A stretch of DNA of 29,961 nt from a virus. Location of the stretch: UHGV virus genome UHGV-0134758; one strand, written 5' to 3'. Made by a program: the position numbers and the translations under genes. Of the stretch, positions 1,046 to 29,698 are shown piece after piece. The notes under the pieces were generated by a model that was given only the letters and a program-made list of their open reading frames with translations, was not told the origin of the DNA and made no database searches. Every line of letters starts with the position of its first letter. The stretch's first letter is position 1.

Positions 1046-1466
1046 AATATAATCATGTGACCAATTATTATAATAATTTTAATGAATTATTTCTACTGAT
1101 TATCCAGTGTGTCTGGTGGTTTTCGGTATTATCTGCCGGAACCATGCCTCATCCAGCGAGTATTTGCTGCCGGGGTTATCCGGTTTTACGGTCACACCCT
1201 CGAGCCTCCGATTCTGGTCACGGCGGGTTTGTTATTTCCCGGTGCGTCGGATGACCACTGCCGTAACTTCTGCACCATTTTTGGGGGGGGCGGGATTCCA
1301 CTCCCACGCAACCTGCGCTTTTTGTGCAGCCTGTTTTGCTGCGCTGTCCCGGATTTTTGAGTTTCATTCTGCCCTCCCCCGATCCTATCAGGGACGACAC
1401 CCATCCACTTAAGCACGATGCCAAGACCATCAAGGAGCAGCGTCAGCGGTCCCAGCACAATGTTCT

Positions 1467-1510
1467 GCTTGACATCCTCCACGCCCTAAAGGACGTGGAG
1501 GATGTCAAGC
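1467..1510. repeat. perfect 17-bp inverted repeat (gcttgacatcctccacg / cgtggaggatgtcaagc) with 10-nt spacer
   Basis: Seen directly in sequence, anchored on the 1324..1563 ORF frame. The spacer ends also pair (cct/agg), giving a near-continuous 44-bp palindrome about 65 nt upstream of the holin-like start. Confidence 0.85.
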
Positions 1511-1573
1511 AACATGACCGGTTGAGAAGTTACTTTGCATACCATTACCTCCTGACAACGTAGGAGGGAACTT

Positions 1574-9218: not shown

Positions 9219-10331
9219 ATGAAAAAAATTACAGTGGCACTTTCTACGGTTGCAGCATCTGTTCTGATGGCAATGTCTGCACAAGCGGCAGAAATCTATA
9301 ACAAAGACGGTAACAAACTGGATCTGTACGGCAAAGTTAATGCAGAGCATTACTTCTCTTCTTCAGCTAGTAATGACGGAGATAAAACTTATGCTCGTAT
9401 GGGTTTCAAAGGTGAAACTCAGATTAATGACCAGTTAACCGGTTTTGGTCAGTGGGAGTACGAATTTAAAGGTAACCGTACTGAAACTGAAGGTTCTGAT
9501 AAAGATAAAACTCGTCTTGCGTTTGCAGGACTTCGCTTTGGCGATTATGGTTCGCTCGACTATGGTCGCAACTACGGTGTAGCTTATGATGTTGGCGCTT
9601 GGACTGACGTTCTGCCTGAGTTTGGTGGAGATACCTGGACTCAGACTGATGTATTTATGACCCAGCGTGCTACTGGCGTGGCGACCTATCGTAACAATGA
9701 TTTCTTCGGCCTGGTTGATGGTCTGAACTTTGCTTTGCAGTATCAAGGTAAAAATGATAGTGCTTCAAAAGTGAACAACCCGAAAGGCCGCGAAGCAGTT
9801 GAATCTAATGGTGATGGTTTTGGCCTGTCAGCTACTTACGATTATGAAGGATTTGGCGTTGCTGCAACCTATGCAAAATCTGACCGTACTGATGGGCAGG
9901 TATCCTATGCTAAAAACAGTCATCTGAATGCCTCTGGTAAAACTGCTGAAGTATGGGCTACGGGCCTGAAATATGATGCAAACAACATTTATCTGGCTGC
10001 CACTTATTCTGAAACTCAGAATATGACAGTCTTCGGTGATGATCATATTGCAAACAAAGCGAAAAACTTTGAAGCTGTTGCTCAATACCAGTTCGACTTC
10101 GGCTTGCGTCCGTCCATTGCTTACCTGCACTCTCGCGGTGAAAATATTGGTGCGTTCGGTAATCAGGATCTGGTTGAATACATCGAGGTAGGCACGACCT
10201 ATTACTTCAACAAAAATATGTCCGCTTTCGTTGACTACAAGATCAACCTGATTGATGAAAGTGAATTTACCAAAGCATCTGAGGTTGCAACCGACAACAT
10301 CGTTGCTGTTGGTATGACCTACCAATTCTAA
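9219..10331 (+). CDS. general porin of the OmpC/OmpF/PhoE family (Lc/NmpC-like phage-borne porin)
   Basis: Signal peptide [23 protein letters not shown] then mature [17 protein letters not shown]; conserved blocks GFGQWEYEF and LQYQGKN; C-terminal ...VGMTYQF with terminal Phe. Strongly resembles prophage porins Lc/NmpC from memory. Confidence 0.9.
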
Positions 10332-11047: not shown

Positions 11048-11064
11048 AAATTTATTAGAGCAAT
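11048..11064 (-). promoter_or_regulatory. C1-repressor operator-like 17-mer, 17/17 to ATTGCTCTAATAAATTT
   Basis: Plus strand reads aaatttattagagcaat, the reverse complement of the P1 C1 operator consensus as I recall it. Sits in the divergent ssb/lyz intergenic region. Confidence 0.55.
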
Positions 11065-11087: not shown

Positions 11088-11097
11088 TAACAAGTGA
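11088..11097 (+). promoter_or_regulatory. conserved 10-mer TAACAAGTGA, candidate phage late-promoter element
   Basis: Same 10-mer on the coding strand upstream of the portal candidate (plus coordinates 14824..14833, reverse complement); near-copy GACAAGTGAC upstream of the mat-position ORF (24304..24313, reverse complement). Each is followed about 6 nt later by an A/T-rich -10-like hexamer. Confidence 0.35.
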
Positions 11098-11197
11098 TTT
11101 GCATTATCCTGTGCCTTCTAAAGGGATCGAGTCAGTCGGTATTGGCTGTGAATGGGTGTTTGTCCTGGAGCGTAAAAAATTCTCTTATGAGGTCTTT

Positions 11198-14777: not shown

Positions 14778-14843
14778 TTAATTAGAATAATTCGCATCGT
14801 GTTTGAACGGAATTTAACACTAGTCACTTGTTAAGGATTACCA

Positions 14844-22382: not shown

Positions 22383-23423
22383 GTGTTAGTTAAATATATA
22401 GGCGAGAGTTATATGGATAAACCTTGGCCGGGCATGCACATTAGAACATCTTGTCTGGAGGATGGTTTCTTTAGAGCAACGCAACCAAAGTATCTTAATG
22501 ATCCGTCGAGTGAGTCGCGACTTCTTCCATTTTTTAATAAATTTTCACCAGCCGATTACGCATGGGCTAGAAATGAATTTAAGAAAATGCAACGAGATCC
22601 ATCTTATGTCCCATCTATACAAGAGTTAGAGTATTATTTAAAACCTTGCGGGAAACGATACGGAGAGGATTTTCCACACTTGTTAATCAATGAAGGTTTT
22701 ACCTCAATGGATTCATATGATGAATCTAAACTCCAAGAAATAGTAACGTACCTTAACGATTATTTAGTAGAAGCCGTAAGCTGTCATCTTGGTGTGTTCT
22801 CTCTATCAAAAAGTGATTGCAATCTACACATGTGGACTCATTATGCATCGATAGGAAAGGGGTTTGCTGTAGTTTTCGATGAAACACACGATTTTTTCAA
22901 AATATATCGGCCGTGTGATGTTAGTTATAATCCAGAAGATAGAGCATCTGTAACCTATTATAAAGGCGCTGTGCGATTTAATGGCTATCCTGCGCCATCG
23001 AGGAATATAGATATAAAGAATAAAGATAATACATTGCATGGGATCTTAAATCGAGATTCAGTTCGCGAGCTTTTTATTAATAGGCTTCTTTATACAAAAG
23101 GTGAAGAGTGGCTTCCTGAAAATGAAAGTAGAATTATTTTTCCATTGGCTGATTGCGAGAGAAAAATAGGAAGTATTGTCTCTCCATCGATTGATGACTG
23201 CCTATTAAATGAGTATCCTGATGTTTTTCATGACTATCATGAAATTAACTTAAAGAAAATTCCTTTTTCTGCATTCAAGCAAATTACCTTAGGGTATAAC
23301 ATGACTGAAAAAGATAAAAATATAATTTTAGATAAAGTTAGTTCGAATAAAGAATTGTCTCACGTCAACGTATTACATTCAAAACTTGATATATACGGAA
23401 AGGTTGTGGTTAAGCCCATGTAA
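22383..23423 (+). CDS. DUF2971-like protein of unknown function; candidate single-gene anti-phage defence / abortive-infection cargo
   Basis: Markedly AT-rich 346-codon ORF (alternative ATG at 22413). Motifs FRATQPKYLNDPSSE and CNLHMWTHYASIGKGFAVVFD resemble the two DUF2971 signature blocks as I recall them. Isolated between the lxc-position ORF and the convergent mat-position ORF. Confidence 0.7.
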   Translation: MLVKYIGESYMDKPWPGMHIRTSCLEDGFFRATQPKYLNDPSSESRLLPFFNKFSPADYAWARNEFKKMQRDPSYVPSIQELEYYLKPCGKRYGEDFPHLLINEGFTSMDSYDESKLQEIVTYLNDYLVEAVSCHLGVFSLSKSDCNLHMWTHYASIGKGFAVVFDETHDFFKIYRPCDVSYNPEDRASVTYYKGAVRFNGYPAPSRNIDIKNKDNTLHGILNRDSVRELFINRLLYTKGEEWLPENESRIIFPLADCERKIGSIVSPSIDDCLLNEYPDVFHDYHEINLKKIPFSAFKQITLGYNMTEKDKNIILDKVSSNKELSHVNVLHSKLDIYGKVVVKPM

Positions 23424-23520: not shown

Positions 23521-24162
23521 TTATAGAATATTATTCTTTCCGGTGAGTATTCCTTGAGGAACTCTAGCGCATCCCATAATTTGAGTTTTCTTGATGATGT
23601 TTATATATGACGCTATCAGCGATGAGTCATCACGACTATCCACTTCACAAGCCATTGCCCTGATGTAGTCGGCGCTGGCAACGTTGTTGTATTCCGTCGC
23701 AAAGCAACAGAGTAACGTCAGAACATGCTCTGTCGTTATTTCGCTCCAGTTGATGTTGAAAAATTCATCGCCTTTTTTATCGTGTTCGGAATCGAAGATG
23801 CTTTGGTGGAGGATGTATTTGCCGGATTCCTTGCGCGGTAACTTGATTGCTTTCTGGCGTTCCAGCTCCTTATAAATCTGCATTGCCTCAATTAGTACCG
23901 GCCTGCCGTTCATGAAGGGATCGCGCAACCTTACACGCTGGCCAACTCGACCAGTAATAAAGCTGTTTTCCTCTTCCACCAGCACGATAAAACCCTTTTC
24001 CTCTTTTTCTCGCAATTCGCGCAGCAGCTGGAGTTCCATGTCGCGGCGGCGTTCAGGGTAGCTGGTCCGCTCAGCCATTATCAGCTCGTTATTGATCCAT
24101 GCAGCAGTCATTGACGCCGGTTTGCCGACGCTCATCGAAACAACGCATATTTTCTTATCCAT
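23521..24162 (-). CDS. hypothetical protein (position of P1 mat, particle maturation)
   Basis: ATG at 24162 with AGGGG 5 nt upstream (the track's GTG start is at 24189). The late-promoter-like motif lies about 140 nt upstream. Confidence 0.5.
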   Translation of the reverse strand: MDKKICVVSMSVGKPASMTAAWINNELIMAERTSYPERRRDMELQLLRELREKEEKGFIVLVEEENSFITGRVGQRVRLRDPFMNGRPVLIEAMQIYKELERQKAIKLPRKESGKYILHQSIFDSEHDKKGDEFFNINWSEITTEHVLTLLCCFATEYNNVASADYIRAMACEVDSRDDSSLIASYINIIKKTQIMGCARVPQGILTGKNNIL

Positions 24163-24350
24163 AGCGCCCCTACAAAAAAGAAAAGCCACCAGCGGCGGCT
24201 TAGCAATACAACTGAAGGTAGCACCCGGTACTCAGACTGTGCCGTCCATGGAATATTTGAAAAGGGATCCATCCGTACCGGGCGTGTGATGATTCTGACT
24301 GAAGTCACTTGTCAGTTGTCAATCATTTATCATTAAAAATAATATATTTA

Positions 24351-26970: not shown

Positions 26971-27004
26971 ATAACTTCGTATAATGTATGCTATACGAAG
27001 TTAT
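26971..27004. other. loxP recombination site (13-bp inverted repeats around an 8-bp spacer)
   Basis: ATAACTTCGTATA-ATGTATGC-TATACGAAGTTAT read directly, canonical loxP. Hand-counted, plus or minus 1 nt. Confidence 0.95.
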
Positions 27005-27047
27005 TAGGCCCGAAGAGGAGTTTACGTCCAGCTGCGCATAAAAATCA

Positions 27048-28579: not shown

Positions 28580-29698
28580 TTATTCAGCCGCCACCGGTTT
28601 TAACAAGCCAGCATCGAGCAGTTTACGCGTCAACCACTGTTGGCCTTTCCCCGTTAATTGAGGCGTCAGCCGTATCTGATAGCCATCTTCATCATCCAGT
28701 ACCACTTCTTTCACCGTGAAATACCCGGCGTTGATGTACTGCTGGAACGGCACATTTTTACGTCCGCCGGACGCAATCAGGATGCCGTTCTCCCGTAACC
28801 AGGCAAACAGCGCGTTTTGCTTAAGTCCAACAACCTTTGCAAAATTCCCAATCAGGATCCCTTTAGCTACTGATACCCGGTCGGCAAAATCGACTTTAGG
28901 AGCGGCGGCCACCAGCTGCTGATTTAGCTGGTGGGCTTTCTGTTCCAGAAGCTGCTTTTGTTCAGCCAGTTCGGCAGCCAGGCGCAGAGCTTCTGGAAGC
29001 GTCTGGGGGATTGCAACCGGTTGCTGTTCTTTTTGTCGGAAGTAGCTGTCTTCCAGTTTTTCAAAGAATGCCCATGCCTGATCGGTTTCGAGCATTTTAG
29101 CGTGGCGGGCTGCGCCGCGTTCCGTCCAGAGGATGAGTGAGCGAACATTGCGAGCAATTTTTACAGAGTAGTTTAAAGCTACTCTGTGCTTCAACTCGCG
29201 CAATGATTCTCCTTCAACTTTGAAAAAGTGCTTCCCTTCAACAAAGCGTACTTTGTTCTCATGATGATTCTGGCGAATGCGAATTGTTTCTGTGCCATAC
29301 CCCTTAGCAAGAATCTCGCTCGTCACGACACGTACTCCCTGCCATTCCAGAACGGGAATTTCATCAGGCTGATTTTGAGCAACCACCAGCTCCGATTCCT
29401 GAACTGAAGGTGTATTAATTTTCTCGGATTTAACGTTAGTAGCTTTCATTCTGTGTGCCTCCTTGCGTGTTTCAGCTGCTACGGTTGCGTAATTCAGGTG
29501 CCCCTGTTCGAGCAGGTATTCGCGGATATCAGACAGCAGGATGCGGTGAACCGCGTTCTTGTCCTTTCTCCGGTAAAGTTGCTTGGTGATCATGAAGTAG
29601 TTGGCAATAACGCCCGGTATATCCCTGGTACTGATACAGGCTGTGTGCTGTTCAATTGCCTCGATCATCTCTTCACGGGTGACTAATGACGTTCTCAT
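28580..29698 (-). CDS. ant: antirepressor (Ant1/Ant2-like, KilA-N / ORF6N-type N-terminal region and antirepressor C-terminal region)
   Basis: 372-aa ORF with an in-frame internal start at Met84 (approx. nt 29449) preceded by AAGGAGG, giving a second product of about 289 aa. This two-start architecture matches what I recall for P1 ant1/ant2. Confidence 0.7.
   Translation of the reverse strand: MRTSLVTREEMIEAIEQHTACISTRDIPGVIANYFMITKQLYRRKDKNAVHRILLSDIREYLLEQGHLNYATVAAETRKEAHRMKATNVKSEKINTPSVQESELVVAQNQPDEIPVLEWQGVRVVTSEILAKGYGTETIRIRQNHHENKVRFVEGKHFFKVEGESLRELKHRVALNYSVKIARNVRSLILWTERGAARHAKMLETDQAWAFFEKLEDSYFRQKEQQPVAIPQTLPEALRLAAELAEQKQLLEQKAHQLNQQLVAAAPKVDFADRVSVAKGILIGNFAKVVGLKQNALFAWLRENGILIASGGRKNVPFQQYINAGYFTVKEVVLDDEDGYQIRLTPQLTGKGQQWLTRKLLDAGLLKPVAAE

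Follow-up and report, generated by a model that had tools for sequence, protein, structure and literature searches.

A 10-mer, TAACAAGTGA, recurs in the genome of virus UHGV-0134758 ahead of genes for lysis and morphogenesis, which raises the question of whether it marks a common regulatory element. A sequence-only reading of this DNA had noted the 10-mer upstream of three such genes and had proposed it as a box of activator-dependent phage late promoters. In the following, the window is the whole stretch of DNA that was analysed, which comprises 29,961 nucleotides.

Identity and gene order of the window

Judged by sequence comparison, the window is that of a phage-plasmid of the P1 type; it shares about 97% identity with phage P1 and is reversed with respect to the reference record AF234172. 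A 2-kb piece around the 10-mer matched 21 phage records, all of which are P1-like (P1, P7, JL22, SJ46, and RCS47 are among them), with 96-97% identity on the opposite strand. For the first 25 kb of the window, the same P1-like phages matched at about 97%, with 79-86% of the length covered and with reversed synteny. The gene order is lydA-lydB-hdf-darA-ddrA-ddrB, porin, ssb (minus strand), lyz-lydD-lydE, pro-prt (minus strand) and darB; further on follow ulx-lxc, the DUF2971 gene, mat-ref (minus strand), cre, loxP, coi, and c1.

The cargo differs from that of P1. Between lxc and mat, a DUF2971 gene (22383-23423, plus strand) takes the place of the EcoP1 res/mod genes, an arrangement common to 85 plasmid records with at least 80% query coverage, the best of which reaches 99.6% identity. 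A gene for an OmpC/OmpD-type porin (9219-10331, plus strand) is found in place of IS1/isaA/isaB, and at the tail-fibre end a tail-fibre-assembly gene and a hexapeptide acetyltransferase replace lydC, cin, and the C-segment of P1. Downstream of c1, where P1 has pacB, positions 28580-29698 (minus strand) encode a protein of 372 amino acids that has both ORF6N and KilAC/ANT antirepressor domains; of the phage records, it is mainly that of phage vB_EcoM-673R5 which shows the same arrangement.

Occurrence of the shared 10-mer

The 10-mer is present exactly at 11088-11097 (plus strand) and at 14824-14833 (minus strand), as had been reported. A copy with one mismatch, TGACAAGTGA, lies on the mat side at 24305-24314 (minus strand); this is also the site given earlier as GACAAGTGAC at 24304-24313, with an offset of one base. 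The distances to the genes agree with the earlier description: the 10-mer starts 110 nt before the ATG of lyz (11198), and it ends 55 nt before the TTG (14768) of the portal candidate prt and about 142 nt before the ATG (24162) of the ORF at the mat position. At all three sites a -10-like hexamer follows 6-7 nt past the 10-mer (TATCCT, TAAATT, and CAGAAT, respectively).

The recurrence of the bare 10-mer is within chance. With at most one mismatch, four matches were found versus 1.66 expected, a number that 8 of 100 shuffles reached as well, and 1,426 distinct 10-mers recur in the window, compared with about 980 in shuffles. The fourth match, TAACAAGTGT at 22676-22685 (minus strand), lies antisense within the DUF2971 ORF 22383-23423 and is not among the 15 best hits of the weight matrix described below; as a promoter site it was dismissed as a clear chance match. 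All this would suit a reading according to which the 10-mer simply recurs in A/T-rich intergenic DNA and has no function. As the statistics of the bare 10-mer are not significant, the argument has to be made from the promoter pattern as a whole: the significance comes from the context, which is given by the arrangement of box, spacer, and -10 hexamer, by the position on the coding strand before operons, by the identity with P1, and by conservation.

Four late promoters of the P1 type

The layout common to the sites is a 9-bp imperfect palindrome AAGTGAYTW, which is the "-22 box", a 4-nt spacer, and a -10 hexamer. Four promoters of this layout, named after their P1 counterparts, are predicted in the window; they are listed here with their target genes:

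1522-1545, plus strand: LPdar, with -22 box AAGTTACTT (1527-1535), spacer TGCA (1536-1539), and -10 hexamer TACCAT (1540-1545)
1574 (GTG) onwards, plus strand: targets of LPdar, which are lydA, lydB, hdf, darA, ddrA, and ddrB
11088-11110, plus strand: LPlyz, with -22 box AAGTGATTT (11092-11100), spacer GCAT (11101-11104), and -10 hexamer TATCCT (11105-11110)
11198 (ATG) onwards, plus strand: targets of LPlyz, which are lyz, lydD, and lydE
14811-14834, minus strand: LPpro, with -22 box AAGTGACTA (14821-14829), spacer GTGT (14817-14820), and -10 hexamer TAAATT (14811-14816)
14768 (TTG) onwards, minus strand: targets of LPpro, which are prt and pro
24292-24315, minus strand: LPmat, with -22 box AAGTGACTT (24302-24310), spacer CAGT (24298-24301), and -10 hexamer CAGAAT (24292-24297); the target is mat

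All four sites have a spacer of 4 nt. The -10 hexamer conforms to TAnnnT at three of them and is CAGAAT at mat, as in P1; the LPmat box AAGTGACTT is a perfect 9-bp palindrome about its central G. All four promoters sit on the coding strand upstream of late operons for lysis or morphogenesis and face them. The proposed 10-mer is thus composed of four conserved 5' flanking bases (T/C-R-A-C) and the first six bases of the -22 box; the functional unit, on the other hand, is the -22 box together with the 4-nt spacer and the -10 hexamer. LPdar, the fourth late promoter of the window, had been overlooked because it differs from the 10-mer at three positions.

Two inverted repeats were seen near LPdar. 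Directly upstream, at 1466-1511 (plus strand), there is a 22-nt inverted repeat with 95% complementarity and a 2-nt loop, positioned exactly where the P1 homology starts (1507). In the leader, a 9-nt inverted repeat TTACCTCCT/AGGAGGGAA occupies 1545-1553 and 1562-1570 (plus strand); the leader contains an anti-SD-like CCUCCU able to pair with the ribosome-binding site AGGAGG of the holin gene lydA. This pairing suggests a translational masking of lydA.

Comparison with the annotated promoters of P1 and P7

The curated record of P1 (AF234172) lists 11 late promoters and marks a "-22 region" and a "-10 signal" in every one of them. The three sites described earlier agree at every aligned base with LPlyz, LPpro, and LPmat of this record, which bears out the assignment to activator-dependent phage late promoters; the comparison with the P1 late promoters, which had been recommended, gave identical 19-nt cores. 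The counterpart of LPmat is named "late promoter LPmat; former LP2", and the core of LPdar is likewise identical to the P1 "late promoter LPdar". In the record of phage P7, LPlyz is annotated with the same layout. Compared with phage P1, the cores, the layout, the downstream genes, and the neighbouring C1 operators are the same, and the promoters themselves do not differ in any respect. The P1 genome paper is said to have annotated several of the 11 late promoters by sequence pattern, without experimental mapping; in the record, LP23 is the one late promoter that bears the label "predicted".

In ten of the 11 annotated promoters of P1 the spacer between box and -10 hexamer has 4 nt, whereas LPhot is annotated with 9 nt. 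An alignment of all 11 gave the consensus ACAAGTGACTT-N4-TAnAAT with the invariant positions T16, A18, T20, A27, and T31. Conservation extends to the 5' side of the box, where 10 of 11 promoters have an A at the second base before it and 9 of 11 have a C at the base directly before it. The same AC is found in the window at 11090-11091, 14830-14831, and 24311-24312, and both bases are also kept in the diverged lineages considered below. The conservation of two or three bases 5' of the palindrome makes the late-promoter site asymmetric (ACAAGTGACTT); this asymmetry could set the direction of the promoter and could account for the firing of most late promoters in a single direction.

For an independent search, a weight matrix was trained on six P1 late promoters outside the region homologous to the window (LPs, LPsit, LP23, LP26, LPpmgL, and LPpac). 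In a scan of both strands, the four best matches were LPpro (27.6), LPlyz (18.6), LPdar (15.9), and LPmat (15.1). The fifth-best match (10.8; 1834-1857) lies inside lydA and within the range of the shuffles and was not called. Over 30 first-order Markov shuffles, the mean of the best score was 11.9 (maximum 16.2) and that of the fourth-best score 7.5 (maximum 9.5). A regular expression for box, N4, and -10 hexamer matched these four sites only, compared with 0.77 matches expected. A further sequence, AAGTTATTA at 26998-27006, is part of loxP and no promoter.

Elements of sigma-70 promoters

The statement that none of the sites has a good -35 element holds for LPlyz and LPpro, and also for LPdar. 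A scan with the sigma-70 consensus detected a -35/-10 pair neither at LPlyz nor at LPdar, and no pair that overlaps the core of LPpro; the hexamers chosen by eye at 17-nt spacing match TTGACA at no more than one of six positions, LPmat apart. At mat the statement fails, as this site has a perfect TTGACA:

24317-24322, minus strand: -35 hexamer TTGACA of Pmat, 19 nt upstream of the -10 hexamer that it shares with LPmat; annotated in P1 as "predicted sigma70 promoter Pmat"

Given the weak -10 hexamer CAGAAT and the overlapping sigma-70 promoter with its perfect -35 hexamer, mat need not be strictly dependent on the late activator Lpa. A different feature was found at LPpro, whose spacer ends with TGT (14817-14819, minus strand). 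The resulting TGn extended -10 element (TGTTAAATT) is kept in diverged relatives and is unique to LPpro among the four late promoters of the window. By virtue of this element, LPpro might have some activity that is independent of Lpa.

Conservation in relatives

At LPpro, the 24-nt core is identical and located at a constant offset in 72 of 78 prt loci from IMG/VR, and one more locus has a single substitution in the -10 hexamer. In five loci with 82-83% Prt identity, the island TTCACAAGTGACCAGTGTTA(A/C)ATT is kept, while the leader and the DNA further upstream have diverged. A comparable picture emerged upstream of lyz. In a lineage with 82-84% Lyz identity, the intergenic region is largely rewritten and two islands are left, which are the C1 operator and (T/C)AACAAG(T/C)GATTT, the latter with TAGGAT or TACGAT past a gap of 4 nt. 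Thus, the diverged lineages (about 83% protein identity for prt and lyz) have kept the box, the 4-nt spacing, and the pattern TAnnnT, and the hexamers TAGGAT, TACGAT, and TACATT replace those of the window. This footprinting in diverged lineages covers LPpro and LPlyz. Of 80 related IMG/VR loci, 77 have LPmat, with changes mostly in spacer and leader; these relatives are all close (at least 88% Mat identity).

Among lyz homologues with at most 71% identity, which occur in non-P1 contexts, the motif is absent. The weak matrix matches before three distant lysozyme genes (L145-L147) lie within a preceding coding region, the stop of which overlaps the start of the lysozyme gene; being inside coding sequence, they were attributed to chance.

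These data decide against a chance recurrence of the 10-mer. The full 24-nt pattern was recovered by a matrix trained on other promoters, with scores that shuffles did not attain for as many as four sites; the geometry does not vary, all sites point towards late operons and correspond to curated P1 promoters, and those at prt and lyz are conserved islands in diverged relatives. A functionless repetition has, in our estimate, a probability close to nil and can be regarded as effectively refuted.

The palindromic box and its neighbourhood also allow for a different assignment, namely an operator of another regulator such as the C1 repressor or a further repressor of phage or host. Operators are usually palindromic, and C1 operators are near: Ossb at about 11048-11064 by LPlyz, and Omat upstream of LPmat. 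Read on the minus strand, AAATTTATTAGAGCAAT at 11048-11064 matches the consensus of the C1 operator exactly (P1 Ossb/Op21). A distance of 28 nt separates this operator from the LPlyz box downstream of it, and in diverged relatives it forms the second of the two islands that are conserved between ssb and lyz. However, a comparison of the late-promoter motif with the 17-bp asymmetric C1 consensus ATTGCTCTAATAAATTT showed no similarity; ATTGCTCTAATAAATTT and the box AAGTGACTT are unrelated and separately conserved. Moreover, the strict 4-nt coupling to the -10 hexamer and the conservation of TAnnnT point to a promoter element, and the literature assigns the box to Lpa. We therefore consider an operator function very improbable and the late-promoter assignment the preferred one.

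The prt/darB intergenic region

In the region between prt and darB, the motif had been described as part of a larger palindrome. This element, ttaacactagtcacttgttaa at 14814-14834, is indeed present and ends 9 nt before the ATG of darB (14844), but it consists of only two 6-nt arms, TTAACA and TGTTAA, which are 9 nt apart and the right one of which is formed by the spacer and the -10 hexamer of LPpro. Diverged relatives have TTCACA for the one arm and TGTTAC or TGTTAA for the other, changes that are not compensatory. The 21-nt palindrome is most likely incidental.

DarB is a virion protein, so that late expression of its gene would suit it, and the LPpro box is only 14 nt away from the darB ATG. 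P1 has one annotated pair of promoters, LP26 and LPpmgL, on a shared -22 box. On these grounds the LPpro box might be bidirectional and also serve darB. In the direction of darB, however, the matrix score is 8.7, which is within the range of the shuffles, and the hexamer at the -10 position, AGGATT, has neither T1 nor A2. This hexamer also overlaps AAGGA, which its position suggests to be the ribosome-binding site of darB and which would be removed by a start at this point. The short outer arms, the identity of the right arm with the LPpro spacer and -10 hexamer, and the non-compensatory changes argue in the same direction, and the P1 record places a sigma-70 promoter, PdarB, inside prt, for which a matching hit was obtained in the scan of the window. 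A use of the LPpro box for darB is thus very unlikely and was rejected on account of the score in the null range and the would-be -10 hexamer over the putative ribosome-binding site.

The start of mat and its leader

P1 annotates the start of mat 20 nt past the -10 hexamer, whereas the sequence-only reading had placed it about 140 nt downstream. Downstream of LPmat, the G-run at 24167-24170 is GGGG in the window and GGGGG in P1; owing to this difference of 1 nt, the P1-type ATG of mat at 24272 is out of frame. Both forms are common in nature (48 versus 34 contigs). The distance between the two ATGs, of the 24272 type and the 24162 type, is 109, 110, 111, and 112 nt in 3, 18, 16, and 1 distinct sequences, respectively. 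Hence, all three frames occur between them, and the two ATGs are in frame in 16 of 38 distinct sequences. In a near-identical plasmid, PGAP begins mat at the downstream ATG. The variation of the frame and the start chosen by PGAP indicate that the upstream ATG is no obligate start of Mat. The N-terminal extension of 37 amino acids annotated in P1 is therefore probably not real or not required, and the annotated start would lie too far upstream.

Across 42 distinct relatives, the leader of LPmat (24163-24285, minus strand; about 125 nt) shows hardly any variation. At 24201-24183 (minus strand), and thus between LPmat and the ATG at 24162, it contains a terminator-like hairpin with a T-run (AAGCCGCCGCTGGTGGCTT followed by TTCTTTTTTG). 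The predicted fold of the leader with this hairpin is modestly better than that of shuffles (z = -1.95). The hairpin could be an attenuator, a target of antitermination, or simply the terminator of ref. Because the frames vary between the ATGs, the leader is nearly invariant, and a terminator-like structure is present, we put forward, as a tentative and rather doubtful reading, that LPmat drives a conserved leader of about 125 nt which is mostly or wholly untranslated, and that mat would need a second control beyond Lpa, by attenuation or antitermination. If this is true, the distance of some 20 nt between LPmat and the start codon of mat, as annotated in P1, does not hold.

Proposed mechanism of late transcription

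Taken together, the three sites and the one at 1522-1545 are very probably Lpa-dependent late promoters, orthologous to LPlyz, LPpro, LPmat, and LPdar of P1. Their activity in this element is inferred by orthology, and nothing in the sequence contradicts the explanation by Lpa. The box would be centred about 22 bp upstream of the start of transcription, preceded by AC and separated by 4 bp from a -10 hexamer of the sigma-70 type, without a usable -35 element; transcription would then begin about 7 nt past each -10 hexamer. The position of lpa is outside the window. Among the phage records matching the window, every complete P1-like one has lpa, with at least 98.9% identity, and the gene is presumably carried elsewhere in this element.

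In three papers (PMC10695390, PMC3152322, PMC1891329), the box of the P1 late promoters is assigned to Lpa binding. Hansen et al. 2003, as summarised in PMC1891329, describe Lpa as a DNA-binding protein with sequence specificity, the action of which is thought to involve a direct contact with SspA bound to RNA polymerase; SspA itself, according to the same summary, does not bind late promoter DNA. SspA bridges region 4 of sigma-70 and the zinc-binding domain of the beta-prime subunit and leaves the DNA untouched (PMC7515715). The transcription of lyz tracks the levels of lpa (PMC8198154), and lpa is controlled by a C1 operator. In the resulting cascade, C1 would be lifted, Lpa would be made, and Lpa, SspA, and the sigma-70 holoenzyme would initiate at the -22/-10 promoters. 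Lpa, which is gp10 of P1, and the host protein SspA, associated with RNA polymerase, would thereby allow the sigma-70 holoenzyme to use promoters that it otherwise ignores. As a consequence, the lysis, head, and antirestriction operons would be turned on late in infection.

The late promoters of phage Mu (activator C) and of P2/P4 (Ogr/Delta) are similar in that they have a recognisable -10 hexamer and a poor -35 element and depend on a small phage activator acting on the sigma-70 holoenzyme. The sites of the Ogr family are found around -55. For Mu, the binding of C spans -30 to -55 (PMC3152322). In contrast to Mu and P2/P4, the site in the window is centred at -22, between the would-be -35 element and the -10 hexamer, and the host co-activator SspA would be needed. 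The same logic, with a DNA-bound activator that contacts an SspA-family protein on RNA polymerase, has been proposed for the MglA-SspA/PigR virulence promoters of Francisella, which differ from the P1 type in organism, DNA motif, and activator family; PMC1891329 cites Lpa/SspA of P1 as a precedent for this case.

Significance

The feature under study is a long-described P1 late promoter; it belongs to textbook biology and is no discovery. Its value in this respect is small, as the promoters are already annotated in the records of P1 and P7 and described in the literature as late promoters bound by Lpa. The example indicates that a reading of the sequence alone is able to recover a real regulatory motif. 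For P1 specialists there are two minor refinements, which are the 5' extension of the conserved site (ACAAGTGACTT) and the start of mat, which is probably mis-set upstream. For the annotation of the window, the outcome is a set of four late transcription units, governed by LPdar, LPlyz, LPpro, and LPmat.
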